Assembly: GCA_050302555.1 (NCBI GenBank)
Contig: JBMUHF010000035.1
Span: 1 to 38,706 of the forward strand
DNA: 38,706 nt
Origin: Arenicellales bacterium
GTDB taxonomy: Bacteria; Pseudomonadota; Gammaproteobacteria; Arenicellales; UBA868
Reading direction: 5' to 3'
Within the stretch, counting starts at the first letter, position 1. Each line of letters begins with the position of its first letter. Of the stretch, positions 1-13,066 are shown in pieces. The translations under genes and the position numbers were made by a program. The notes under the pieces are model-generated. The model saw nothing but the letters and a program-made list of their open reading frames with translations, ran no database searches and was not told the DNA's origin.

Positions 1-2
1 CT

Positions 3-806
3 TCATCAAAACCCTGGCTCCTGATTATAGGAATTACCTCGAGCGTTATCCTCTGGTATGGCCTCGTCCAATGGACACCGTTTACTTCATTCAACCGCTT
101 ACCTGATCCGTTATCTGTAATCCTCGAGTGGACTTCTACCGACCCTGACTACGGTCTATCAATATTCACCAAAGACTACTACCTGCATATTCTTTACAGC
201 ACCTATCGGGCAACCGTGGCTTTCGCGCTCGCCGTCATTCTAGGGGTGCCACTCGGAATCATGATGGGCTGGCGGGCCAACTTCAACGCCTACGCCGGAG
301 CACTTCTTGACTTTCTGCGACCAATCCCGCCTCTGGCATGGGTCCCCATCGCTATCCTGATCCTTCCAGGAGATGAACCAGCAGTTATCTTCGTCACCTT
401 CCTCGTGGCGTTTTTTGCCACGACCCTGAACACGCTTTTAGGTGTTCGATCGATCGACCCAGATTTTTTTCGGGCGGCTGAGTGTCTTGGCGCGAATGCC
501 CGGGATGTTTTGCGGGATGTTATCGTCCCCGGCGCTCTACCTACCATCTTTACCGGATTGCAGATCGCGATGGGCGCCGCCTGGTTTTCTCTTGTTGCAG
601 GAGAAATGATCGCGGCCCAGTACGGTCTTGGTTTTATGATCCTCGAGTCATACAACCTAGTGCAATACCCCACGATCGTCATCATGATGGCGACCCTTGG
701 AATTGTCGGTTACTTCAGTAGCGCCATGATTCGACTCGTGGGAAAGAAAATGACTCGCTGGCGGGAACAGGCGACCGGGATGGGACTAGAGGCAAAAGCG
801 CAATGA
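3..806 (+). CDS. NitT/TauT (SsuC/TauC-like) ABC transporter permease 1, 5'-truncated by the window edge
   Basis: Frame is open from position 3 (SSKPWLLIIG...LPDPLSVILEW...YRATVAFALAVILG), so the track start at 216 is internal. Contains LRPIPPLAWVP, an EAA-like loop (RAAECLGA) and LVAGEMI. Confidence 0.9.
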   Translation, partial: SSKPWLLIIGITSSVILWYGLVQWTPFTSFNRLPDPLSVILEWTSTDPDYGLSIFTKDYYLHILYSTYRATVAFALAVILGVPLGIMMGWRANFNAYAGALLDFLRPIPPLAWVPIAILILPGDEPAVIFVTFLVAFFATTLNTLLGVRSIDPDFFRAAECLGANARDVLRDVIVPGALPTIFTGLQIAMGAAWFSLVAGEMIAAQYGLGFMILESYNLVQYPTIVIMMATLGIVGYFSSAMIRLVGKKMTRWREQATGMGLEAKAQ

Positions 807-1630
807 GTGAAGCCGGATCCATTTCAGTCTCTAACGTTCGAAAAATCTACGATCCAGAAGGTGCTTCAGTGCACGCGCTAGAAGACTGTTCCTGCGAGAT
901 TCCTTCGGGGAAATTTATCGCCATGGTCGGGCCTTCGGGATGCGGTAAAAGCACCCTGCTCAACATGATTGCGGGTTTCGACACGCCCACCGATGGGGAT
1001 ATCCGGCTAGATGGTCAACTATTGGTCAATTCATCTACCCAGACCCCGCCAAACTCAGACCGTGTCGTGGTCTTTCAGAATGGCGCCCTTTTCCCTTGGA
1101 AAACCGTGTTAGAAAATATTGCTTACGGACCTATCGTCCAGAAAACACGAAGTCGCGAACAAGCAGAACAGGAGGCGTTGGAACTCCTCCGAAAAGCGGG
1201 AGGTCTCGAACGAATCGCCGGCGCCTTCCCCAACCAGATCTCATCAGGCATGCAACGACGGGTAGAGATTCTTCGTGCGCTGATCAACCAGCCAAAGGTA
1301 CTCCTACTTGATGAGCCGTTTAGAGCGATGGATACCGTGTCGAAATCAAAGATGCATCAGCATCTACTCGACATCCACTACAAGTTCAAACCGTCCATAC
1401 TGCTGATTACCCACGATCTTGTCGAAGCCATTCTGCTCGCAGATGTTGTTCTGGTCATGACGACCCGACCGGGGACAATAAAGGTCAACATTAACATTAA
1501 CCTGCCCCGTCCTCGATCAAGAGACATGATTCTCTCGGAGGAATTTACAGAACTCCAAAAACAAGCGATCTCTGCCGTGCATGAAGAGGCTCGTAAGGCA
1601 TTCGAGCGCGGTGAGAAGGAGTTGGCTTGA
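803..1630 (+). CDS. NitT/TauT ABC transporter ATP-binding protein 1
   Basis: Walker A GPSGCGKS, Q-loop VVFQ, atypical signature ISSGMQRR, Walker B LLLDEP, H-loop ITHD, C-terminal LPRPR. ATGA overlap with the upstream permease. Confidence 0.93.
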   Translation: MSEAGSISVSNVRKIYDPEGASVHALEDCSCEIPSGKFIAMVGPSGCGKSTLLNMIAGFDTPTDGDIRLDGQLLVNSSTQTPPNSDRVVVFQNGALFPWKTVLENIAYGPIVQKTRSREQAEQEALELLRKAGGLERIAGAFPNQISSGMQRRVEILRALINQPKVLLLDEPFRAMDTVSKSKMHQHLLDIHYKFKPSILLITHDLVEAILLADVVLVMTTRPGTIKVNININLPRPRSRDMILSEEFTELQKQAISAVHEEARKAFERGEKELA

Positions 1631-1634
1631 GCCA

Positions 1635-2408
1635 ATGCTGAAGCAGCTTCAATCCTCTCTGAACTGGCGTGGCTTCGTCGCCATCTTTGGGTTTTTTCTG
1701 AGCTGGTATCTAGCCTGTATTTTGGAACTACCAGGGTTTGCCGAAATGGCAAATCCACTGGAAGTGATCCAGATGTTTGTACGGGAATATGCGCGCGACG
1801 ATCACTACTGGCTTTCATGGATCACGAGTTTCCAGCGGGTACTTTATGGCTTTCTCTTTGCGCAACTGTTCGGCATCCCACTAGGGCTCTTGTTCGGGAC
1901 TAATGAGAAATTCCGGAACCTGTTCTTCCCAGTGTTTGAATTGCTGCGGCCGATTCCACCATTGGCCTGGGTGCCGATGTCGATCCTGTTCTGGCCGACC
2001 AATGAATCCAGCATCATCTTCATTACCTTTATCGGAGCCTTCTTCATTATTGTTATTAATGTCTTTGATGGGGTTCGGGATATCAAACGAGAGCACCTCT
2101 GGCTGGCTCTGTCGCTTGGCGCACCCCGTCGAGTGATATTCCTGCGGATCATGCTCCCAAGTGTGATCCCCTCGATCGCTGTGGGGATGACACTTGGGAT
2201 TGCCATTACGTGGGATGTGGTGATCGCAGCAGAAATGATCGCTAGTGATAGTGGGTTGGGAAGACTCACCTGGGAAGGTTACGTAAGTAGTACGCCAGAA
2301 GTCCTGGTGATCGGCATGATCAGCATTGGTTTGGCCGGATATCTCTCTACCAAAATAGTCAACACAATTGAACGAAAGATGATGCCCTGGCGAAGAGTGG
2401 GGCGATGA
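1635..2408 (+). CDS. NitT/TauT ABC transporter permease 2
   Basis: LRPIPPLAWVP and VIAAEMIASDSGLG motifs plus hydrophobic helices. Start moved from 1581 to the ATG at 1635, just after the ATPase stop. Confidence 0.9.
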   Translation: MLKQLQSSLNWRGFVAIFGFFLSWYLACILELPGFAEMANPLEVIQMFVREYARDDHYWLSWITSFQRVLYGFLFAQLFGIPLGLLFGTNEKFRNLFFPVFELLRPIPPLAWVPMSILFWPTNESSIIFITFIGAFFIIVINVFDGVRDIKREHLWLALSLGAPRRVIFLRIMLPSVIPSIAVGMTLGIAITWDVVIAAEMIASDSGLGRLTWEGYVSSTPEVLVIGMISIGLAGYLSTKIVNTIERKMMPWRRVGR

Positions 2409-3211
2409 GCACATCTGCAAATCATTCGCCCACAAAAGGCGACTCCGGAATCTGGTTGGACAGCGTCAGTAAGAGCTTTTCCTCACCCGACGCTGGGTTA
2501 ATACCCGTATTTGAGAACCTCTCCGTTCAGTTTGAACCCAACCAATTGCACGTCGTTATGGGCGCTTCAGGCTGCGGGAAGTCGACATTGGGCTACCTGT
2601 TGGCCGGATTCATCCGGCCGGATCAAGGCAGCGTCGGCCTTGGCGACAAGCTAGTAAAAAATCCCGGTCCGGAAAGATTGCTGGTCTTTCAGGAAACGGC
2701 TCTCTGGCCCTGGATGACCGTGCTGGACAACGTCGTTTTTGGGCCGAAGGTCCGGGGTGACACTGATACCGCAAGCGCAAAAAGCGCAGCACAAGCACTG
2801 CTCATGAAATTCGGCTTGGCCGACTTTTCTGACAAGTATCCCGACCAGCTCTCAGGAGGAATGAAGCGGCGGGCAGAGATCGCGCAGGCGCTGATTAACC
2901 GGCCCGAGGTCATGATCCTCGACGAACCATTCCGTGGGCTGGATGTCATGACGCGGGAGATTCTTCAGGAGTACTACCTCGATCTCTTTGAGGAGACTCG
3001 ACAGACAACGGTATTTATAACCTCCGAACTCGAAGAAGCCCTGTTTCTCGCCGACAAGATCTACATCATGGGTGAGCAGCCAGCACGAATTCTTGACGTT
3101 ATTGACGTTGACCTGCCTCGGCCCCGCGACTTTGAGGTCACGGTGAGCAAAAAGTATCTCGAGTACAAAGAGCGGGCAATTAAACAGCTCTTTCAATCCG
3201 AGGAGTCATAG
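2405..3211 (+). CDS. NitT/TauT ABC transporter ATP-binding protein 2
   Basis: Walker A GASGCGKS, signature LSGGMKRR, Walker B MILDEP. H-loop His replaced (ITSE). LPRPR tail; ATGA overlap. Confidence 0.92.
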   Translation: MSTSANHSPTKGDSGIWLDSVSKSFSSPDAGLIPVFENLSVQFEPNQLHVVMGASGCGKSTLGYLLAGFIRPDQGSVGLGDKLVKNPGPERLLVFQETALWPWMTVLDNVVFGPKVRGDTDTASAKSAAQALLMKFGLADFSDKYPDQLSGGMKRRAEIAQALINRPEVMILDEPFRGLDVMTREILQEYYLDLFEETRQTTVFITSELEEALFLADKIYIMGEQPARILDVIDVDLPRPRDFEVTVSKKYLEYKERAIKQLFQSEES

Positions 3212-3253
3212 ATTTCGCATCAGAGCATGAGGTCAAAACTCTGAAATTACCTT

Positions 3254-3288
3254 AACCACCAACCATAAACCATGAACCATGAACAACG
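3254..3288 (+). repeat. Degenerate 7-bp tandem repeat x5 (AACCACC AACCATA AACCATG AACCATG AACAACG)
   Basis: Read directly; abuts the GGAGGAG ribosome-binding site of the binding-protein gene. Confidence 0.7.
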
Positions 3289-3301
3289 GAGGAGTACCAA
3301 A

Positions 3302-4390
3302 ATGAAGTTTCTAAAATTAGTTGCTGTAGTGTTGATCTTTGCGGCATCCGGCAAAGCGTGGTCTGCAGATGCTGTCGATATCACTTACGGATACCATCCC
3401 TATTGGACGGGTGGCTGGAACGGCGTGATTATCAAACATCTAAAGCTTCATGAAAAATACCTGCCGGCGGGTAGCAAGGTCAGATTTGAAGCTCACTTGA
3501 CCGGCCCCCCAATGGTTAACGCGCTGCTGGCTGACAAGATGCAGATCGGCACCATGGGTGATATGCCGTCCCTCGTGGCAACGACCAAAAGAAAGATCGC
3601 TGATGTCCGACTAGTCTCTACGCCAATGTTCAGTAACGGTCAGAACTGCAACAAGATCGTGGTACCAGTTGATGCTCCCGACTTTGCCAGTGTGGAAGAG
3701 GCTGGTGCCTGGCTCACCGGAAAACCCTTTGCTGTACACAGAGGTACCTGCGCTAACCGGTTCGTCGACTCCGTGATCATGAAAGGCGCCTTCACGCCCT
3801 CTGAGCGCTTGAGCATGACGATTGAGGTCATCACCAGTAATTTTGAAAGTGGCAAAATGAAAGGGGGAGCCGCGATGTGGGAGCCTCATGCGCGACGGGT
3901 GGTCGAACTGGGTCACGCTAAGTACGTTGCCACGGGTGCGCCGTGGGGAGAGACGGATGCCGACTTCACGCTCATGCGCCAAGATTTCATCGAGAACCAT
4001 CCAGAGGCCGCTGTTGGCTGGATGAAGGCAGAGATCGAGGCAATGCAGTTCATGATCAACAATCCCGAACAGACAGTAGAAATTCTCTACGAGGAATTGA
4101 CCGGTTACCCCAAGTCCACCATTTGGTCCGCAATTTACGAAGAGAACCCTGTCTCAATCGGAGGAGACCCTGTCACCTATCAGGCAAAGATGGTGTTTGA
4201 CAGCGATGTCATCACCTTGGCCAAGAATGGGTACGCATTTCTGCATCAGTTAAAGGTCCTCAAATCGCCCAACCCTCCTGAGAACTTCTACAATGACGGT
4301 CCACTACAGACTGCCCTGTCGGAGATGAATCTGAAAGCGCCGATTGGAGACATCATCGGTAAGCCGCGGTCGACGCGTCCGTACGACTAA
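3302..4390 (+). CDS. ABC transporter substrate-binding protein (SsuA/TauA/NMT1-like)
   Basis: GGAGGAG RBS before ATG 3302, signal peptide MKFLKLVAVVLIFAASGKAWSA, motifs GPPMVNALLA..QIGTMGDMP, WEP and FIENHPE. Last gene of the ABC operon. Confidence 0.88.
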   Translation: MKFLKLVAVVLIFAASGKAWSADAVDITYGYHPYWTGGWNGVIIKHLKLHEKYLPAGSKVRFEAHLTGPPMVNALLADKMQIGTMGDMPSLVATTKRKIADVRLVSTPMFSNGQNCNKIVVPVDAPDFASVEEAGAWLTGKPFAVHRGTCANRFVDSVIMKGAFTPSERLSMTIEVITSNFESGKMKGGAAMWEPHARRVVELGHAKYVATGAPWGETDADFTLMRQDFIENHPEAAVGWMKAEIEAMQFMINNPEQTVEILYEELTGYPKSTIWSAIYEENPVSIGGDPVTYQAKMVFDSDVITLAKNGYAFLHQLKVLKSPNPPENFYNDGPLQTALSEMNLKAPIGDIIGKPRSTRPYD

Positions 4391-4410
4391 AGCTTCGTGA
4401 GTGCCATTGC

Positions 4411-4435
4411 AGGGCGCCCCTTGGGCGCCCTTTTT
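4411..4435 (+). terminator. Intrinsic terminator AGGGCGCCC-ctt-GGGCGCCCT-TTTT
   Basis: 9-bp GC-rich stem followed by a T run, between convergent genes. Confidence 0.8.
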
Positions 4436-4940
4436 ATTGGCGCACGAGATCTAAATCAACAGATACCGGATTTCGCAAATCGTCGAGAACGGGGCAATGC
4501 TGATTAACCGCCTCCCGGAGACGTTCCAGCTCCTGATCACTAGCTGAGGTTTGGACTTTAATTTCGCCGGTGATGTGTGAAAACCCGGCACGCACCGAAT
4601 CGTCCATTCCGAAAAATCCTCTCGCGTCGGAGTGGCCCGTCAAACTGACAGATACCTCGTCCAGAGGAATCCCTAACGCATCGGCGTAGAGACGATAGGT
4701 AACCTCATGGCATGCCGCCAAAGCGGCCAGTACATATTCACTGGGCCGGGGCCCCTGATCCGTGCCGCCCATCCCTTTGTTCTGATCCACCACAATATCA
4801 AAACCACGCGCTTTCACCCGACTCATAAAGCCGTCCACCAGTTGACTATCAGCCTTTACCTTGACGGAGCACTTATCAGGATTTGCCGACAGAATCTCCC
4901 TTTTTTGGTCCCAGATCTCTTTGAAGTCTTTGGTGGTCAT
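4434..4940 (-). CDS. OsmC/Ohr-family protein
   Basis: DQxxxMGGTDQGPRPSEYVLAALAAC and ..HCPVLD, i.e. the two conserved OsmC cysteines. ATG at 4940 (MTTKDFKE) preferred over the track start at 5006. Confidence 0.88.
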   Translation of the reverse strand: MTTKDFKEIWDQKREILSANPDKCSVKVKADSQLVDGFMSRVKARGFDIVVDQNKGMGGTDQGPRPSEYVLAALAACHEVTYRLYADALGIPLDEVSVSLTGHSDARGFFGMDDSVRAGFSHITGEIKVQTSASDQELERLREAVNQHCPVLDDLRNPVSVDLDLVRQ

Positions 4941-5128
4941 GGTTGGCCTATTCGAAACGGAAATTGAAGTGGCAGCGCGATCGGTAGCGAATTCCCCGTC
5001 TCGCAACTTTCAAACTGAATTGAGATGTCTAAATATACCCGGGCATTCAGGGCTCGTCCTCAACCCGATCTACCTTATCTCGGTCAGGATTGGAGTTACT
5101 AAAACGAGCACCATAGCAGCCGCAACGG

Positions 5129-5167
5129 GTGGGAAATTAGTGGGCCACTTGTGGGAAATAAGTGGGC
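5129..5167. promoter_or_regulatory. Candidate operator: four GTGGG boxes at 11-bp period (two copies of GTGGGAAATWAGTGGGC)
   Basis: GTGGG at 5129, 5140, 5151 and 5162; a further inverted GCCCAC at 5280-5285. Lies in the divergent osmC / HTH-fusion intergenic region. Confidence 0.65.
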
Positions 5168-5295
5168 GATATTCCTTTTTCTGGGATAATAATTGATAAC
5201 AGGATCCAAATCTCTCAAGAATATTACAAAAAGGTCTTTTAAATAACTAAAATACGTCCATTTTATTATTGAGAACACTGCCCACGTTTTGAGAA

Positions 5296-5349
5296 ACTTT
5301 TTTTATTTATAAAAAAAGTCTTTACAGGTCTCTTAATAGTCTCTAAGTT
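5296..5349 (+). promoter_or_regulatory. Putative sigma70 promoter (TTTACA-17-TAAGTT) with upstream A/T-tract palindrome
   Basis: -35-like at 5321-5326, -10-like at 5344-5349, 17-nt spacer. ACTTTTTTTAT-tt-ATAAAAAAAGT at 5296-5319 sits in the UP-element position. Confidence 0.45.
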
Positions 5350-5456
5350 GAGGTCTGCCCGCACGACCGAGATCGCCAGGCCTCGTAACGTTTTCAAAGG
5401 CTGGCCACGGGCGCCGATCGCAATCAGGAATTTTTCGTAAAGAGGTAGATGAACTA

Positions 5457-6977
5457 ATGCAAATACAAACAGTATCTGGGCCGCAGGACTCGATCCGCTC
5501 GTTATTAACGGATATCGAGAACTTTTGCCGCTCTTGCGACATGGCAGAGACCACATTCGGTCGCCAGGCGGTCAACGATGGCAAGCTGTGCCAGCGACTC
5601 CGCACTGGAAAAGGAATCACTATTAACACCGTTCATAAGATCCAGGAATTTATTCGCCAAAAGAGCGCCCTTTCCCATCCACTTTCCCTGACCCCCAATA
5701 GCTTACTAGCCTCCCCTAGCCAAGATACGTCCAATGGCGCGCTCCATGAACCGATCTCCTCACAAAAAGGCATAACCGCCGAGAAAGGGTCGCCTCCAAC
5801 CCGGCCTTTTCGCTTTTACGACAACCGGCAGAAATACCTCGGGTTTGTGAATACTTGTGATGAGAAATGGAAAGTCGCAGAACGTGCGGCGCATGAACTG
5901 TCTCATGTTCAGCCCGTACCTCCGGCGCTTCGTATCTTTGACGCAGGCGTGGGAGACGGCTCGGTGCTGAGTTATCTGCTACGCGCAACCCATCAAAAAT
6001 TCCCAACGATTCCATTTTTTGTCGTCGGCAAAGAGATCAGTCTAGAGGACGTGCGACTCTGTCTGGATAACCTACCCGACCGATTCGCTGAACACCCTGC
6101 GAGCGTCATCTGTATTACCAACCTTTTTTACAGTGAAGCGCCGTGGCTGATGCCCGGAAACATGGCCGCTGCAGCAGCGCTCAACTGGCACGAGATTTCC
6201 CTGCAGGGCGACTCCGCCCAGGAATACGGGGAGCAGTTAAAGGCTATCGACGACATTCTCGTGGATGGCTGGGAAGTCAAAGTCAGTGAGAAAACCGGAA
6301 ACCCTCGCTATGTCCGACCCTCGGTCCTGGTAATTTTCCGGGAAGACAATCGATTCCTCCTCGACTCTGTCATACCCCGCCGCGGGCAGGTGTCCGGTGA
6401 CTATGATCTGATACTGGCCGCTCAACCATGGCGCGCCCGGATGAGCGCGCAGTTCAAGGCTGAAAAAGTGCTTGCTCCACTGGTGCGAAGTCTCGGGCCA
6501 GGAGGCAGACTTCTGGCGGTCCAGTCTGCCGGAAACGACCCGGGCATGGAACTCGTCAACCTTGTCTGGCCTGACGAGAATCCGTTTGAGGTGAACCGGC
6601 ATGACCTTCTGAAAGCGCTCAAGGATAAGCTCGGCCGTGCCGGCTCGAATTACAACTTTAATGCCGGTTCCGACAACAAATCGATTATGAAATATGAGAT
6701 GAAAACGCTGCCCAATGAGATTGCCGACAGCATCGGCACGTCTACTCTTTTTGCAGCCTGGAACGCGTCGACCTATGTCGCGCAAATTGAAGACGATCGT
6801 CTACAGCCGGCTGTGGCTTCAGGCGCATACCTTGAAGCAACCGAGAAAGTACTGCAAAAGCACAATGGCATCTGGTTTAATGACGAAACCTTTGTGGTAT
6901 CCCGCAGACGTAATTCGATCGCTCACGGTAACTCGCATAGCCCCTCTACCGCCAGCTCCTTTTCTGCTGATAAATAG
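5457..6977 (+). CDS. Uncharacterised fusion: N-terminal Cro/XRE-like HTH + low-complexity linker + class I SAM-dependent methyltransferase fold
   Basis: N-terminus IENFCRSCDMAETTFGRQAVNDGKLCQRLRTGKGITINTVHKIQEFI resembles small phage-type HTH proteins. S/P-rich linker, then motif I LRIFDAGVGDG, beta2 VVGKEISLED, YDLILA and LVRSLGPGGRLL. AGAGG RBS. Confidence 0.75.
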   Translation: MQIQTVSGPQDSIRSLLTDIENFCRSCDMAETTFGRQAVNDGKLCQRLRTGKGITINTVHKIQEFIRQKSALSHPLSLTPNSLLASPSQDTSNGALHEPISSQKGITAEKGSPPTRPFRFYDNRQKYLGFVNTCDEKWKVAERAAHELSHVQPVPPALRIFDAGVGDGSVLSYLLRATHQKFPTIPFFVVGKEISLEDVRLCLDNLPDRFAEHPASVICITNLFYSEAPWLMPGNMAAAAALNWHEISLQGDSAQEYGEQLKAIDDILVDGWEVKVSEKTGNPRYVRPSVLVIFREDNRFLLDSVIPRRGQVSGDYDLILAAQPWRARMSAQFKAEKVLAPLVRSLGPGGRLLAVQSAGNDPGMELVNLVWPDENPFEVNRHDLLKALKDKLGRAGSNYNFNAGSDNKSIMKYEMKTLPNEIADSIGTSTLFAAWNASTYVAQIEDDRLQPAVASGAYLEATEKVLQKHNGIWFNDETFVVSRRRNSIAHGNSHSPSTASSFSADK

Positions 6978-7001
6978 ACTTCACTACGGAATAGCCTACC
7001 C

Positions 7002-8213
7002 ATGAAAGAGCATTATTACTTTGACAACGCGGCAACGACACTGCCGAAACCAGAACCGGTATACCAGTTCATGGATCAGTTCTTCCGTAGTCACGGAGTG
7101 AACCCTGGCCGCTCAGGGCATGAACTGGCTGTCGAAGCTGAAACGATGATCGTTCAAACCCGGCGAATGCTGGCGGAGTTTTTCGGATTTTCGGGTGACC
7201 CGGGCCGGGTAACGTTTTCCCAAAACGCGACCGACTCCATGAACGCGGCGCTATCGGGGATGCTGAACCCTGGCGACCACATGATCATTACGCGGATGGA
7301 GCATAACTGCGTTCTGCGCCCGGCCAATCACTTTGAACGGGATCATGATGTCTCGGTCACACGTATCAGCGCAGACGCTAAAGGATTTATCGATCCGGAC
7401 GAGATCGCCAAGAGCATTCAGCCCAATACCCGCGTTGTTGTTGTCAACCATGCTTCCAATGTAACGGGCTCACTTCAGGACGCAGCGACAATTGGCAAAC
7501 TGGTGAAAGAAACCGACGCGACCTTCGTCCTCGACTCGTGCCAAACCGCAGGCGTGGTCCCTATTGCCATGGACGACTGGGGTGTGGATGTACTGGTCTA
7601 TACCGGACACAAGGGTCTTTTCGGGCCTATGGGTATCGGCGGCATGCTGGTAGCGGAAGGCGTTGATATCCGCCCGCCGCGCACAGGAGGTACCGGCGTG
7701 AATTCAATCTCCCCTTTCCAGCCTGACGAGTATCCCTACCGGATGGAGACCGGCACCCACTGCCTGCCAGGCATCGCTGGACTGAATGCCGCGCAGAAGT
7801 GGTTTGCCGAACTAGGTCGGAGCCACGGCGCGGATCCAGACAGCACCCATGGACAAGCCTGCGCAACTGCGCTGGCCCATATCCACGAGCAGGAACTCAG
7901 CGCAACCCAGCATCTGCTCAATGCCTTTGACAGCATCGACGGGGTCAAACTCTATGGCCCCGAGATTGGGCAACCGCGGGTTTCAACCCTATCAATCAAT
8001 ATCAGGGATCTTCCTGCAGACCAGGTCGGCGCCATGCTGGATGCCGATCATGCAGTCTGTGTCAGACCGGGTTTGCACTGCGCACCGGATGTTCACGAAC
8101 TGCTTGGCACCGTTCCCCAGAATGGCACCGTGCGCTTTGCCTCGGGATACTTCACTGATGACGAAGACCTGAATCAAGCTGTCGAAGCTGTCCGGGATCT
8201 TGCCGAAAACTAA
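7002..8213 (+). CDS. Cysteine desulfurase / selenocysteine lyase family protein (aminotransferase class V, PLP)
   Basis: YFDNAATT, NPGRSGH, MEHN, NHASNVTG, PLP lysine in TGHKGLFGP, ETGT and catalytic-Cys loop RPGLHCAP. Confidence 0.88.
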   Translation: MKEHYYFDNAATTLPKPEPVYQFMDQFFRSHGVNPGRSGHELAVEAETMIVQTRRMLAEFFGFSGDPGRVTFSQNATDSMNAALSGMLNPGDHMIITRMEHNCVLRPANHFERDHDVSVTRISADAKGFIDPDEIAKSIQPNTRVVVVNHASNVTGSLQDAATIGKLVKETDATFVLDSCQTAGVVPIAMDDWGVDVLVYTGHKGLFGPMGIGGMLVAEGVDIRPPRTGGTGVNSISPFQPDEYPYRMETGTHCLPGIAGLNAAQKWFAELGRSHGADPDSTHGQACATALAHIHEQELSATQHLLNAFDSIDGVKLYGPEIGQPRVSTLSINIRDLPADQVGAMLDADHAVCVRPGLHCAPDVHELLGTVPQNGTVRFASGYFTDDEDLNQAVEAVRDLAEN

Positions 8214-8243
8214 CCGCTTACCGCCCTGAGGCAGGATGTCTTT

Positions 8244-9632
8244 ATGAAAGCTGTAGAAAGCGTGATTGACTTAGTTGGCGGAACTCCGCTTGTCCGACTC
8301 AATAATATTGTTGAACCTGACATGGCGACCGTCTATGCCAAAATGGAAAACCTTAATCCATCGGGCTCTGTCAAAGACCGGATGGCAATAAACATGGTAA
8401 AGCGGGCTGAGGAGGCGGGCCTGCTCAAACCGGGCGGCACCATTGTCGAGAGCACCTCGGGCAATACCGGGCTTGGGCTGGCGATGGCTGCAGCGGTCCG
8501 TGGATACCGTTGCGTCTTCACGATCCCGGACAAGATGAGTCAGGAAAAAATTGACATGCTGAAGTCCTACGGGGCCGAGGTGATCGTCACAGCGACTGAC
8601 CTTGATCATCATCATCCAGACAGCTACGTCGAAGTCGCTAAGCGGGTCGCCCGGGAAACGCCTGGGTCCTTCTACACTGACCAGTACTCTAATCCCCATA
8701 ACCCAGAGGCCCACTACCTTACTACCGGCCCCGAAATCTGGGAGGCCACCGACGGCAAGATCGACTCCTTTGTGGCGGGACTCGGCACAGGTGGAACGAT
8801 CTCGGGCACGGGGAAGTATCTCAAAGAAAAAGCAGCTGAAGCCGGACGGCCGGTGAGGGTTGTAGGGCCTGACCCCCACGGTAGCATCTATAAAGAAGCC
8901 CACGAGAAAGGTGAATGGAGTACGCCATCGCTCTATCGCGTCGAGGGGATCGGTCACGACTTCATGGTGGATACGCTGGATTTTTCCGTGGTCGATGAAG
9001 TGGTGAATGTCTCGGACCGCGACTCTTTTCTGATGGCGCGGCGTTTGGCTCGTCGGGAAGGCATTCTCTCTGGCGGGTCGACGGGAACAGTATTCTTTGG
9101 TGCCCTGCAGGAGGCAAAGAAACTGGGGCCCGGCAAAATCGTCGTTGCAATCGTCTGTGACTCAGGTGATCGCTATATCAGTAAATGCTTTAACGACGAA
9201 TGGATGCGCGACATGGGATATTTTTCCCCGGATAGCCATCTTGGCACCGTCCAGCAGTTACTGGATGTCCGCAATCAAGACGTAGCCTTTGCCAAACCTG
9301 AAGAATCCCTGCGGGAGGTAATCGCAAAAATGGCGGCGACCGGCATCTCTCAGATGCCGGTGGACTCCGGCCAGGGAGATCTTCGCATGATTGAAGAGCT
9401 CGACATTCTACGGGCGGTGGCCAGTGACGAATACGGCCTTGGGGACAGTGTGCGAGATATCGCGCGACCGCTTGAGGGGCGAATCAGTTCTAAAGATAAT
9501 CTCAGCCACGTACAGCAGATCTTTGAACAGAACAATGTCGCCGTTGTGGTGGACGAAGGTCGCGTTCTAGGGATCATTAACAAGATCGATCTGCTTGAAT
9601 TCATCAACAACCACAATCGTCAGGCAGCCTGA
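8244..9632 (+). CDS. cbs: Cystathionine beta-synthase with C-terminal CBS (Bateman) pair
   Basis: NPSGSVKDR (PLP Lys), ESTSGNTG, IPDKMSQEK, DQYSNPHNP, GLGTGGT, YRVEGIG, CDSGDRYISK..NDEWM, then ~130 aa of CBS domains (GISQMPV; VLGIINKIDLL). No N-terminal heme domain. Confidence 0.9.
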   Translation: MKAVESVIDLVGGTPLVRLNNIVEPDMATVYAKMENLNPSGSVKDRMAINMVKRAEEAGLLKPGGTIVESTSGNTGLGLAMAAAVRGYRCVFTIPDKMSQEKIDMLKSYGAEVIVTATDLDHHHPDSYVEVAKRVARETPGSFYTDQYSNPHNPEAHYLTTGPEIWEATDGKIDSFVAGLGTGGTISGTGKYLKEKAAEAGRPVRVVGPDPHGSIYKEAHEKGEWSTPSLYRVEGIGHDFMVDTLDFSVVDEVVNVSDRDSFLMARRLARREGILSGGSTGTVFFGALQEAKKLGPGKIVVAIVCDSGDRYISKCFNDEWMRDMGYFSPDSHLGTVQQLLDVRNQDVAFAKPEESLREVIAKMAATGISQMPVDSGQGDLRMIEELDILRAVASDEYGLGDSVRDIARPLEGRISSKDNLSHVQQIFEQNNVAVVVDEGRVLGIINKIDLLEFINNHNRQAA

Positions 9633-9670
9633 TCTACGTCCGACTGTCACCAAAGCTACGGAGAAGCACA

Positions 9671-10813
9671 TTGAAATTTGATACCAAGGTAGTCCGCGCC
9701 GGCATCAGTCCCGACCCCACCACAGGCTCGATACTGCCGCCGATCTATGAAACCGCCACCTTTGTACTGCCGGAGGTCGGGCGCGACTTGGGCTTTGATT
9801 ACACACGGTCCTCGAATCCCACTCGACAGGTGCTCGAGGACAACCTCGCCGCGATTGATAACGGTCAGTACGCCGTCAGCTTCGCGAGCGGTATGTCAGC
9901 CGTGGATTCGTGCTTTAAGCTCCTGACCGCCGGGGATCATATTGTCTGTGGTGATGATGTTTATGGCGGAGTGACGCGCCTGCTGGATAACGTCACTGTG
10001 CAGCAGGGTATTGATGTCAGTTACGTTGATACCACAAACGCAGATGCCGTACGGAGCGTCATCACCCCCAAGACACGAATGCTCTGGATTGAGACCCCAA
10101 CCAATCCGCTGTTGAAGGTGAGTGACCTTGAGGAAATGGTTAAGATCGCGCGCGAGAACGATATCCTGCTGGGTGTGGATTCCACATTTGCGACACCAGT
10201 CTTCCTTCGGCCTCTGGAGTTCGGCGCCGATATTGTGATGCACAGCACCACCAAGTATCTTGCCGGGCACAACCAGATTATCGGCGGCGTGATCGTCACC
10301 AATCACCAGCATGTGTTTGAAAAGATGAAGTACATCCAGAAGACCATCGGCGCGGTGTCGAGCCCTTTTGACTGCTGGCTAAACCTCAGTGGCCTCAAGA
10401 CGCTGCACCTGCGCATGAAGCGCCACGAAGAATCGGCCATGGCGGTTGCCGAGTTTCTGGAAGGCCATAACAAGATTGATCGCGTGCTCTATCCCGGCTT
10501 GGCCTCCCATCCACAACATGCTATCGCCAAGGCGCAGATGTCGGGCTTCAGCGGTATGATTGCTTTTGAACTGACGGGCGGCACAGAAGCCGGCAAGCGC
10601 CTCATGAACAATGTTCAGTTATGCGGACTCGCGGAAAGCCTCGGCAGCGTCGAGACTATGATCACGCATCCGGCCAGCATGACGCACGTTGACGTACCCG
10701 TAGAAGACCGGCGCAAACGGGGCTTAACGGACGGTCTCGTTCGGCTCTCTGTCGGTATCGAAGACGTTGACGACATAATCGGTGATCTGGAATCCGCGCT
10801 GGAAACAGCCTGA
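9671..10813 (+). CDS. Cystathionine gamma-lyase/gamma-synthase (Cys/Met metabolism PLP enzyme)
   Basis: DYTRSSNPTR, FASGMSA, DDVYGG, IETPTNP, HSTTKYLAGH (PLP Lys), AESLG, HPASMTH, LVRLSVGIED. TTG start with GGAG RBS. Adjacency to cbs favours gamma-lyase. Confidence 0.9.
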   Translation: MKFDTKVVRAGISPDPTTGSILPPIYETATFVLPEVGRDLGFDYTRSSNPTRQVLEDNLAAIDNGQYAVSFASGMSAVDSCFKLLTAGDHIVCGDDVYGGVTRLLDNVTVQQGIDVSYVDTTNADAVRSVITPKTRMLWIETPTNPLLKVSDLEEMVKIARENDILLGVDSTFATPVFLRPLEFGADIVMHSTTKYLAGHNQIIGGVIVTNHQHVFEKMKYIQKTIGAVSSPFDCWLNLSGLKTLHLRMKRHEESAMAVAEFLEGHNKIDRVLYPGLASHPQHAIAKAQMSGFSGMIAFELTGGTEAGKRLMNNVQLCGLAESLGSVETMITHPASMTHVDVPVEDRRKRGLTDGLVRLSVGIEDVDDIIGDLESALETA

Positions 10814-10831
10814 AACAGCTGACGCAGCTGC

Positions 10832-10868
10832 ATTCTGTAGCGCACTTTGGGTGCGCTACAGAATTTTT
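10832..10868 (+). terminator. Intrinsic terminator with 14-bp stem, overlapping the stop of the convergent gene
   Basis: ATTCTGTAGCGCAC-tttgg-GTGCGCTACAGAAT-TTTT. Confidence 0.8.
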
Positions 10869-11311
10869 GCCGAGTAGTCGCCCGAGTAAACGACTGCTAC
10901 CTCGCTCTGCGAATGGACCTCGGCATGGAGGGAGAGTAACGCCCTGCTCCGTTCTCCGAGTGACGCTATGAACGCAGCCGCGTCTTCAGGCGCAGGCCAG
11001 CGACAGCGTGCGCTAATCATCTGTTCTGTGCAGGGCCGCGCGTAACGCACATCGCTTCTGACCACCGCGATATCCGTTTGATATCCTGCGTCCTCGCAGA
11101 CGAGCGACGTCATCGCCCATCCAGACAAGGTACAAAGCGATGCCAAGGTTCCTGCAAACGCGGTCTGCTTGTCATTGAAATTCGACGCCAGTGGCGCCTC
11201 CAGCACCAATCCCCTGTCATCAACCGGCCCCGCCTGAATGTCAAAGTGTCGCGCCATTGGGACATTTTCCCGCAGGTACCGAACCAGTCTTTCAAGCGCG
11301 CTCTGATGCAT
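10856..11311 (-). CDS. Hot-dog fold thioesterase, YiiD C-terminal-like
   Basis: YLRENVPMA...APLASNFNDKQTAFAGTLASLCTLSGW matches the YiiD-C pattern. ATG 11311 chosen. Confidence 0.78.
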   Translation of the reverse strand: MHQSALERLVRYLRENVPMARHFDIQAGPVDDRGLVLEAPLASNFNDKQTAFAGTLASLCTLSGWAMTSLVCEDAGYQTDIAVVRSDVRYARPCTEQMISARCRWPAPEDAAAFIASLGERSRALLSLHAEVHSQSEVAVVYSGDYSAKIL

Positions 11312-11876
11312 CAAGACTTCCCAATTTAAAGAAACATTCCTCACTGATCACGCCCCACTCATTGGGCACCGTCGGTGCGGGCTGGATCAGCTCCGCCAGT
11401 TCGTAGTACACAGAACGGTTAATAAGTGCCCACAAGCCGTCGCGCACTTCTATATAAGGCGCGGGCTCTCCATTTACGGGGTTTTCATCGACGTGCAGCG
11501 GGTGTGCCTCACCGGCGATCACAACATCGTCGACGTTGGTCCGGAAAACCAGTCGCTGTGACTTGCCGTGTCCTGTGCGCTCTAGTTCCACCGCCAGAAA
11601 GGGCGCATCTTCAACCTCGATGCGGAGCTTTTCTGTCGGGGAAACCAGGAAGAAATCTTTTCCCTCTCTTTTTAGGACCCGGGATAGCATCCGAACCAGT
11701 GATGGCCGCTCTATTGGAGAACCGAGGTAGTGCCAAGCACCGTCGCGACTGATCCGAAGCTCCATATCCCTTTGGGTTGCGGGCTGCCAGGAATTCACGG
11801 GGGGCAGTTTTTCATCTCGGGTCGCAACCGCCAGTCGCTCAAGGGGGCCTAATGTTTCGGAATCCGACTCGATCAG
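11292..11876 (-). CDS. DUF1285 family protein, probable CTG start
   Basis: LPPVNSWQP...MELRISRDGAWHYLGSPIERPSLVR, LVSPTEK..IEVEDAPF, FRTNVDD, PYIEVRDGLWALINRSVYYEL. The frame is open upstream of the track GTG (11798) to a stop at 11913-11915 with no ATG/GTG/TTG; CTG at 11876 overlaps the upstream TGA. Confidence 0.8.
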   Translation of the reverse strand: MIESDSETLGPLERLAVATRDEKLPPVNSWQPATQRDMELRISRDGAWHYLGSPIERPSLVRMLSRVLKREGKDFFLVSPTEKLRIEVEDAPFLAVELERTGHGKSQRLVFRTNVDDVVIAGEAHPLHVDENPVNGEPAPYIEVRDGLWALINRSVYYELAELIQPAPTVPNEWGVISEECFFKLGSLDASERA

Positions 11877-12259
11877 GAGGGCTCTCCCTTTACGGGGCGG
11901 GGTCGGCCCGAATCATCGAGCGCGACAAAAGTGAAGATGCCTTCGGTGACCTGCTCTTCGGTTCGGTCATGTCGACGACGAACCCAGGTATCAACCTTGA
12001 CAGCAATTGAGGTCACCCCAACCCTGACTGTGCTGCAGTAGCAACTGACCTGATCACCGACCTGAACTGGCCGGTGAAATGTCATGGCATCGACTGCAAC
12101 CGTGGTGACTCGACCGCGAGCGGCTTCAAATGCGTGGGTGCCTCCAGCCAAGTCCATCTGCGACATTAGCCAGCCGCCGAAGATATCGCCATTAGGATTG
12201 GCATCAGCCAGCATGGCGATAGTACGAATTAATGGAGTTCCGTCAGGCGCGCTGCTCAA
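11873..12259 (-). CDS. yciA: Acyl-CoA thioesterase (YciA family)
   Basis: IRTIAM.ADANPNGDIFGGWLMSQMDLAG, TVAVDAMTFHRPVQVGD, FTFVALD..GRPR. TTG start overlapping the upstream TGA. Confidence 0.88.
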   Translation of the reverse strand: MSSAPDGTPLIRTIAMLADANPNGDIFGGWLMSQMDLAGGTHAFEAARGRVTTVAVDAMTFHRPVQVGDQVSCYCSTVRVGVTSIAVKVDTWVRRRHDRTEEQVTEGIFTFVALDDSGRPRPVKGEPS

Positions 12260-12846
12260 GACGATGACCCTCGCGGTAAACGGCCCATCAGGTAAAACTC
12301 ATCATTGGGCCGCATGGCCGTGAGATTTGCCATCCGATTGGAAAGCGCGAAAAACGCGGCAATCGCACCAATATCCCAGATGTCCTCGTCGTCAAAGCCA
12401 TGGTTGCGCAGCGCCTCGTAATCAGATTCTTCTAGCGCCGCTGAGTTGACCGCTACCTTTTCAGCGAACGCCAGCATAGCTCTCTGTCGCTCGGTGATAT
12501 CGGCTTTGCGGAAGTTGACCGCTACCTGATCCGCCACCAGTGGATCCTTGGCGTAGATCCGGAGAATAGCGCCATGGGCGACAACACAGTATGGGCAGTT
12601 GTTCTCCCCCGAAGTGGAAACCACGATCATCTCGCGCTCGGCCTTGGAAAGGCCGCCATCGCGAAGCATCAGGGCATCGTGATAATCGAAGAATGCCCGG
12701 CACTCGCTCGGGCGATGCGCTAGTGCCAAAAACACATTCGGCACAAATCCTGCTTTTTCCTGAACTGCAAGAATACGATCACGCAGGTCTTCGGGCAGTT
12801 CATCCAGTTTGGGCACCGGATACCGGCTGATAGGTTTTTCGCTCAC
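12256..12846 (-). CDS. Peroxidase-related enzyme, AhpD/carboxymuconolactone decarboxylase family
   Basis: GFVPNVFLALAHRP, EREMIVV.TS..NNCPYCVVAHGA (CxxC), FFALSNRMAN. GTG start with AGGA RBS. Confidence 0.9.
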   Translation of the reverse strand: MSEKPISRYPVPKLDELPEDLRDRILAVQEKAGFVPNVFLALAHRPSECRAFFDYHDALMLRDGGLSKAEREMIVVSTSGENNCPYCVVAHGAILRIYAKDPLVADQVAVNFRKADITERQRAMLAFAEKVAVNSAALEESDYEALRNHGFDDEDIWDIGAIAAFFALSNRMANLTAMRPNDEFYLMGRLPRGSSS

Positions 12847-13066
12847 AATACTTCCTGGTTAGAAACTTGTTCGCTATTTTACCCTTCAGTTCCCCCTCGA
12901 CTCGTAGACTTTGACCCAAGCGGCGACGGGCCGGTCGCGGGCTTTGGCCTGATACTGTGATTATTGGGCTATGTGGTCGTGGGGAGGCTCTCGCTCCCGC
13001 TACAGAGCAACTCCAAACGTCGATTGGACGAGTTGAGATTAGGAAACTGGTGAATTGACCACCACT

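Follow-up and report, generated by a model that had tools for sequence, protein, structure and literature searches.

A probable reverse-transsulfuration operon and its predicted regulator in a proposed genome-wide methionine regulon of an Arenicellales bacterium

A stretch of 38,706 nucleotides from an Arenicellales bacterium of the UBA868 lineage (GenBank contig JBMUHF010000035.1, our contig C35 of a 2.56-Mb assembly, G000, that is 90% complete), referred to here as the window, opens with genes for a NitT/TauT-type importer, an OsmC-family protein and a four-gene operon, in which a 506-aa protein (the head protein) precedes three pyridoxal phosphate (PLP) enzymes of sulfur metabolism. A preliminary description of this DNA had read all of these as a single regulated module for scavenging an organic sulfur or selenium compound, which raises the question of which genes belong together and what the head protein does. 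Our answer is that this locus is best read as a reverse-transsulfuration operon led by a probable regulator and forming part of a predicted methionine regulon spread over the genome, and not as a scavenging module. The enzymes of the operon are themselves ordinary; we consider it likely that together they convert homocysteine to cysteine and persulfide, and that they are headed by a transcription factor that senses S-adenosylmethionine (SAM) or S-adenosylhomocysteine (SAH) and binds the palindrome TGGG-N6-CCCA before the operon and before distant methionine-cycle genes.

Conservation of the operon and its place in sulfur metabolism

The head gene was present in 20 of 24 relatives of the same genus in a first draw and in all three further genomes, and the order regulator, desulfurase, cystathionine beta-synthase (CBS) was found at each of the 21 genus loci for which flanks were fetched; the gamma-lyase gene came next at all 16 loci whose contig extends far enough. 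In the window the four genes are separated by gaps of only 24-38 bp and closed by a 15-bp hairpin (10832-10864; -25.5 kcal/mol, z -5.35, equalled by none of 200 shuffles), which bears out the strong terminator proposed earlier. All open reading frames (ORFs) likewise have the positions and orientations first described; a simple hairpin scan listed the stem at 4411-4431 but not this one. Contigs from marine RNA libraries covered 24-30 of 30 bins across positions 1-12900 in four runs, a form of data from which strand, level and co-transcription are not readable.

On the left flank lies a divergent operon encoding a CoA-binding protein, MetY (TIGR01326, above cut-off) and an iron alcohol dehydrogenase. 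In the window's own genome these three genes are found on contig C255 (1-4701), on the opposite strand and overlapping the start of the window, and the assembly break at this point hid a fourth PLP sulfur enzyme, MetY, from the preliminary description, to which the distal regulon was likewise out of sight. Among 18 genus relatives with the left flank on the same contig, ten carry osmC, five of these carry the importer too, and eight have neither; in G016 the importer and osmC sit at a separate contig end. A member of another genus, G509, has the metY operon divergent from the head gene, desulfurase, CBS and lyase genes, with neither osmC nor the importer. From this synteny across the genus and in G509, the ancestral unit was most likely a metY operon facing the four-gene operon; osmC and the importer would be variable additions to it. 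Outside the genus, the neighbours of the head gene at 85 loci, many of them short or redundant, were unrelated in most cases and otherwise included metK (11), ahcY (10), MTHFR-like (10) and MetE-like (9) genes, whilst desulfurase (3) and gamma-lyase (1) genes were rare and CBS, osmC and the importer's binding protein did not occur.

At the family level, the three PLP sulfur enzymes were as first described. The desulfurase scored 368.6 bits against TIGR01977 (cut-off 377). CBS scored 491.6 against its best-matching family, TIGR01137 (cut-off 510.25), has the PALP domain, the PLP lysine and a C-terminal CBS domain, and has the Rv1077 CBS as its closest solved relative (E 2.5e-112). The gamma-lyase, which adjoins CBS, reached no NCBIfam equivalog cut-off, and its top seven solved relatives are gamma-lyases or gamma-lyase-like proteins. 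As all three fall just or clearly below the equivalog cut-offs, their exact specificities are inferred. The proposed combination of reverse transsulfuration and persulfide formation gives a coherent route from homocysteine through cysteine to persulfide, encoded in a conserved operon, with activities that are putative. Use of a selenium compound found no support, the desulfurase scoring 279.5 against the selenocysteine lyase model NF040779 (SclA; cut-off 525). Genus genomes encode additional desulfurases, ruling out the window enzyme as the sole one, and because of these we ascribe to it a more specific role.

Searches for pathway gaps in five genus genomes (90-97% complete, two of them single contigs) found PF01507 (CysH/CysD), CysE (above cut-off) and MetJ in none of the five. 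The only NIR_SIR matches were an adjacent pair sized like DsrA/DsrB, in four of the five, and one partial CysK/M-like match was found in G000. Since CysH/CysD, CysE and MetJ were not found in these genomes, the operon is the likely route to cysteine; the organisms would depend on reduced sulfur and make cysteine from homocysteine through it. A reverse Dsr pathway is reported in the available text for a cultured UBA868 strain (bioRxiv 10.64898/2026.04.01.715867). A similar lack of assimilatory sulfate reduction is described for Pelagibacter in the available text of PMC5069961, according to which metY, bhmT, osmC and a desulfurase respond there to methyl or sulfur status.

Some loci bear further features. 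In G020 (L033:4137-7993) and G017 (L037:1911-5773) three same-strand genes are inserted between desulfurase and CBS, encoding an acyl-CoA ligase that comes close to the 3-methylthiopropionyl-CoA ligase model (650, cut-off 822), together with an acyl-CoA dehydrogenase and a short protein resembling MetE; this is possibly a methyl-sulfur scavenging cassette. In G004 (L386:6919-9229) metA and bmt lie ∼13-14 kb from the operon, at a distance similar to that in several relatives, which suggests a larger methionine region. Frameshifts in the regulator and several adjacent genes at L047 (G024) and L049 (G013) are probably assembly errors.

The head protein and a recurring palindrome

The head protein matches no Pfam or NCBIfam model, and a whole-protein sequence search of the PDB returned nothing significant. 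It has at least 7999 homologues (8000 candidates scored), with no Pfam domain in the best 120, and its C-terminal domain was found in 16 of 400 sampled genomes of the phylum. In the predicted model, four helices at residues 9-72 (predicted local distance difference test, pLDDT, ∼90) are joined by a disordered linker to an alpha/beta body at ∼115-486. This body is predicted to adopt the class I SAM-methyltransferase fold with an intact SAM-binding motif: Foldseek gave a probability of 1.0 and 150 matches at E ≤ 0.001, the best fold match had Z 16.6 and a root-mean-square deviation of 3.7 over 264 aligned residues, and motif I (D162-A-G-x-G-D167) and E193, the usual SAM/SAH-binding positions, are invariant. 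The closest folds are those of active methyltransferases that carry a lid and act on small molecules (xanthosine, salicylate and histamine methyltransferases and the S-methyltransferase TmtA).

The N-terminal domain is less readily placed. A match to phrog_7669 (E 1.4e-5), a family with no assigned function, together with the few HTH_26 matches given below, points weakly to a Cro/C1 (XRE) identity; HTH_5 (ArsR) matched none of 31 aligned N-terminal domains, and a PF01022 search of G000 did not recover the head protein. Modelled alone from the single sequence the domain gave a poor pLDDT of 66.6, with nothing clear in structure searches and nothing in a PDB profile search. Its own family comprises 3913 cluster representatives; small proteins predominate among the best 150, and Pfam coverage is scarce. 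Matches in a viral library were confined to the methyltransferase part, and the methyltransferase domain had no match in a plasmid search. Of the fusion of helix-turn-helix and methyltransferase first proposed, the methyltransferase half thus gained ground from structure prediction, whilst the helix-turn-helix label is weakly supported.

Homologues that do not have the N-terminal domain were found at 13 loci with full upstream sequence (48-68% identity). In records titled Woeseia (L066, L067, L068 and L072, ∼5860-10100) such homologues directly follow what we take to be a TRAP binding-protein gene, and G030 carries a back-to-back pair (L050). That these shorter proteins are retained, that the methyltransferase domain is strongly conserved (mean column identity 62%) and that its fold is nearest to active enzymes would all be expected if the head protein were mainly a SAM-dependent methyltransferase acting on a small thiol or acid, with DNA binding secondary, as in a trigger enzyme. 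Such a role is compatible with the operator data set out below. Set against it, no constant neighbour supplies a substrate or uses a product, non-genus neighbours being mostly unrelated, and the operator tracks the N-terminal domain; we regard it as unlikely, and prefer to see in the head protein a SAM- or SAH-sensing transcription factor.

Recurring GTGGG and CCCAC arms first became apparent when intergenic regions of the genus were aligned. Among 31 non-redundant upstream regions of non-genus loci, a de novo search for spaced palindromes ranked TGGG-N6-CCCA first (24 of 31), and a matrix built from these regions, seeded with the genus-derived pattern, scored ≥ 14 in 77% of them and in 0.06% of shuffles. 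A site was found at only one of the 13 homologues without the N-terminal domain; this one, in G326, heads metK-ahcY-metF in a genome that also has a full-length paralogue. Within the genus (score ≥ 10, leaving out loci whose 5' end is missing or whose upstream sequence is shorter than 150 bp), sites precede the head gene and its operon in 11 of 17 cases, bmt, encoding betaine-homocysteine methyltransferase (NF005718, above cut-off), in 19 of 23, metK in 9 of 16 and a methionine gamma-lyase-like gene in 10 of 16, against a background at the same score of 1.0% of 1631 G000 ORFs. In other genera of the family metK has a site in five of eight genomes with the head gene and in one of seven without it, and in other families of the order neither metK (0/13) nor bmt (0/7) has one. 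A scan of 15 whole genomes with the exact pattern gave 17 sites (10 for a reversed control), nine of which lie in front of a methionine-cycle gene or a homologue of the head gene. Three of the nine turned up blind: one at bmt in G024, one at metK in G008, and one, the sole site of the 8-Mb genome G096, just before metF and metH. In G302 the sole exact match (L401:1501-1516) lies inside a coding sequence that we take to be MetE-like and was counted as non-regulatory. Taken together, the predicted sites before the regulator's own gene, metK, bmt and metF-metH would describe a SAM-cycle regulon with autoregulation.

In several relatives a full palindrome occupies the proximal position, with scores of 15-21.6 in G002, G005 and G008. 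In the window, half-sites at 5128, 5139, 5150 and 5161, four of 25 such matches there, align with the distal palindrome of relatives, the last forming the left arm of a palindrome with two mismatches (5162-5177). Elsewhere in this genome the site before the methionine gamma-lyase-like gene is good (15.0), and a candidate scoring 14.3 precedes a second metY on contig C201; bmt was not found in this 90% complete assembly.

Could the palindrome be read by another factor, the head gene being merely one more co-regulated methyl-cycle gene? The DNA-binding fold of the head protein is not firmly identified, and G514 (81% complete) has a metK site (15.1) with no regulator found there. A gene for an ArsR domain plus methyltransferase (L315:703-1686 in G020), presumably SahR-like from this architecture, occurs in 13 of 46 genomes of the family, with none found in G000, G004 or G024; SahR joins a DNA-binding head to a methyltransferase-like body, an architecture that the ArsR-type L315 protein matches. 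In genus g257, all three genomes have this SahR-like gene, none has the head gene, and metK has no site (0/2). Moreover, across families and classes the site goes with the N-terminal domain, and the motifs given for SahR/SamR and MetR in the available text of PMC4239095 differ from it. We therefore consider reading by another factor highly improbable, and retain the head protein as the one that likely binds the palindrome.

A number of observations weigh against the regulon and its regulator as we read them. On the N-terminal domain, HTH_26 matched in only two of 31 aligned domains (E ∼0.02, 0.017), and exceeded its cut-off in one of 30 related proteins. There is no enrichment of sites before the metY operon (2/15), ahcY (0/16) or CBS (1/18), and the remaining eight of the 17 exact sites fall within coding sequence or at unrelated places. 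The window's own operator reaches a score of 5.2 at best, which is weak, and contains no full palindrome; the metK site of this genome is also weak (4.8). Genome-wide, G000 has eight sites scoring ≥ 14, against 9-22 in three shuffles, and hence no excess. A strong site is absent before the regulator's own gene in most f69 genomes. The training set of the matrix overlaps with some of the self sites at family and phylum level, and because genus members are kin the tallies are not independent. Finally, the pathway gaps come from five genomes only, and the SahR-like gene is also present in 5 of 27 genomes of the genus. In the window's sub-clade, the operon may be under altered or cooperative control.

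Importer, osmC and the remainder of the window

The NitT/TauT-type importer of the preliminary description was recovered as such, with two PF00528 permeases, two PF00005 ATPases and an NMT1_2/SsuA-like binding protein (Table 1), and OsmC with its pair of cysteines likewise. The binding protein belongs, as in TauABC and SsuABC, to the NitT/TauT superfamily; unlike these systems, the importer combines two permeases with two ATPases and has no TauD or SsuD adjoining, and it falls far below the cut-offs of all specific NCBIfam models (for example TauC 129, cut-off 342; SsuA family 87.8, cut-off 163.5). A ribosome-binding site lies 5' of the binding-protein start at 3302, the longest ORF running from 3272. 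The 678 homologues of this protein are named NitT/TauT or similar only; it had no match in the plasmid search and two distant ones in 400 genomes of the phylum.

In order to be one co-regulated scavenging module for organosulfur or selenium compounds, the importer, osmC and the PLP operon would have to share occurrence and control. Some evidence runs this way. Wherever its flanks are known (six relatives and the window) the importer is at the sulfur locus adjoining osmC; the solved relatives of its binding protein, TauA (E 2e-7) and SsuA, distant as they are, bind taurine and sulfonates; osmC shares the operator-bearing intergenic region; and in Pelagibacter osmC, beside bhmT, is described as the most induced gene under sulfur limitation (PMC5069961, available text). 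On the other hand, the importer occurs in only 7 of 46 family genomes (0/18 outside the genus; in neither of the two single-contig genus genomes), forms an insertion that separates osmC from the metY operon, has a terminator of its own (4411-4431) and lacks a conserved operator upstream in the genus matrix scan. Its single insertion site may reflect one inherited event. Orthologues of osmC (81-82% identity) lie elsewhere in the genome in G004, G024 and G525, that of G004 without an operator site; G509 has the core without either; and within the genus a site (score ≥ 10) precedes osmC in two of nine cases, both common with the head gene. A shared module is therefore very unlikely. Patchy occurrence and the missing operator rule the importer out of the regulon, and we regard it, on its distribution, as an insertion that is loosely related at most, and osmC as a mobile neighbour at the locus. 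A link of osmC to sulfur is plausible by analogy, because Pelagibacter induces it with bhmT and metY. What stands of the single regulated module is the conserved, coherent four-gene operon, its order constant and its head gene most likely a regulator, without the patchy importer and with osmC at some loci alone.

A paralogous importer, again of two permeases and two ATPases, is found in most genus genomes (L202, G000:C113:1033-5917), with a binding protein 36% identical to that of the window. An operator site before it (14.0 in G000) was rejected as unconserved (0/11 others ≥ 10).

Table 1. Positions of the genes and signals at the start of the window
Feature	Position	Strand	Basis and remarks
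ABC permease 1, NitT/TauT type	3..806	+	PF00528; truncated by contig start; variable insert
ABC ATPase 1	803..1630	+	PF00005; NtrCD/TauB/SaoA models all below cut-off; variable insert
ABC permease 2	1581..2408	+	PF00528; variable insert
ABC ATPase 2	2405..3211	+	PF00005; variable insert
Substrate-binding protein, NMT1/SsuA/TauA superfamily	3302..4390	+	PF13379 (NMT1_2); variable insert
Terminator hairpin, importer/osmC junction	4411..4431	+	9-bp stem, 8 G-C pairs, T-tail
OsmC/Ohr-family protein	4434..4940	-	PF02566; Cys77/Cys149 numbered from ATG at 4940
Four predicted operator half-sites, direct repeat, 11-bp spacing	5128, 5139, 5150, 5161 within 5128..5177	+	Sequence
Predicted proximal operator position	5270..5285	+	Genus alignment; window keeps right arm alone (5281-5285)
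Predicted sigma-70 promoter, two hexamers, 17-bp spacer, behind A/T tract	5321..5349	+	By eye; genus-conserved
Predicted regulator (head gene), 506 aa	5457..6977	+	No Pfam/NCBIfam match; predicted fold
Cysteine desulfurase-family PLP enzyme	7002..8213	+	TIGR01977-like; GHK and GLHCA motifs
Cystathionine beta-synthase (CBS), C-terminal CBS domain	8244..9632	+	Profiles, solved relatives
Cystathionine gamma-lyase-like PLP enzyme	9671..10813	+	PF01053
Intrinsic terminator ending operon	10832..10868	+	15-bp hairpin at 10832-10864 plus U-tract

The promoter in Table 1 is a by-eye reading of the sequence and the genus alignment and is absent from a consensus-scan listing. An Rfam search of the window matched no family, and hence no riboswitch. 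Downstream of the operon, convergent minus-strand genes at 10856-12846 (a YiiD-type thioesterase, DUF1285, an acyl-CoA thioesterase and an AhpD-like peroxidase-related protein) are largely syntenic with it across the genus. The rest (13106-38706) holds ordinary genes: a class V aminotransferase, agmatinase, a PaaK-like ligase with a branched-chain-type ABC set, ssb, a polyamine-type ABC set, an amidase between two beta-lactamase-family serine hydrolases, an MFS transporter, uvrA and aceE.

Proposed control of the homocysteine branch point

The best reading of these sequences is that the head protein is a SahR-like but separately built SAM/SAH-sensing regulator of the homocysteine branch point. 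With sulfate reduction and O-acetylserine synthesis probably absent, reduced sulfur would enter through MetY or as methionine and pass through SAM, SAH and homocysteine, from which CBS and gamma-lyase would make cysteine and the desulfurase would draw persulfide. A dimer of the head protein would bind the palindrome and read SAM or SAH; high SAM would shut remethylation (bmt) and open the drain to cysteine (the operon), in concert with a CBS whose nearest solved relative is activated by SAM. The Rv1077-type enzyme is described as SAM-activated in the available text of PMC9232105, and the window CBS is likened to it by sequence. At the operon the sites are found upstream of the promoter-like element (5321-5349), an arrangement suited to activation, whilst the bmt site seems, by eye, to overlap a promoter, which suits repression. 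We propose only tentatively that SAM is the effector and that the protein acts both ways, with bmt repressed and the operon activated; the sign of control and the effector are the least certain steps, and the metK and gamma-lyase sites do not decide them.

Like SahR and SamR (Leyn et al., 2014; PMC4239095), the head protein combines a predicted DNA-binding head with a class I methyltransferase-like body, and shares with them, as far as the available text describes, a predicted palindromic operator, predicted autoregulation and predicted targets among metK, ahcY, metF, metH and bhmT. It differs in having no ArsR/HTH_5 match and in its length (506 versus 328 aa); BLASTP against the SahR-like protein of G020 aligned a 16-residue stretch at motif I only (best E 0.11). 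The operator here is a 16-bp TGGG-N6-CCCA, versus the 20-24-bp ATC-N10-GAT type given for SahR/SamR, and the head protein leads a reverse-transsulfuration operon, where the available text of PMC4239095 lists mccAB only as a genome-specific MetJ target. The head protein would thus work like SahR and SamR, but its head domain, homology and operator place it outside them. The operon, in turn, resembles known reverse transsulfuration (Rv1077-type CBS, mccAB) in setting a CBS of the haem-less type with a C-terminal CBS domain beside a gamma-lyase, and departs from it in the apparent co-transcription with a TIGR01977-like desulfurase and a new regulator. Pelagibacter, in the available text of PMC5069961, uses SAM riboswitches and has a source of cystathionine stated to be unclear, in contrast with the predicted protein factor, the CBS and the lack of an Rfam riboswitch in the window. 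Literature searches, which covered mainly titles and the openings of abstracts and few subscription papers, found no published description of the regulator or the operon.

These results propose a testable function, operator and regulon for a family of at least ∼8,000 unannotated proteins. According to the available text of PMC4239095, methionine regulation in Proteobacteria is unknown for many genes and groups, a gap that the present regulon would help to fill. A cultured UBA868 strain exists (bioRxiv 10.64898/2026.04.01.715867, available text), making the idea directly testable if that strain carries the operon. It is possible, though on balance doubtful, that the head protein represents a widespread family of SAM-sensing factors independent of SahR, in which a Cro-like head and a possibly catalytic small-molecule-methyltransferase body act through one operator as a two-way homocysteine switch in abundant marine sulfur auxotrophs; if true, this would be the transcriptional counterpart of a SAM switch that operates in the one-carbon metabolism of animals. 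For the marine group itself, in which sulfate assimilation was not detected, the operon and its predicted regulon suggest how cysteine may be obtained and how methyl supply may be balanced against the need for sulfur.

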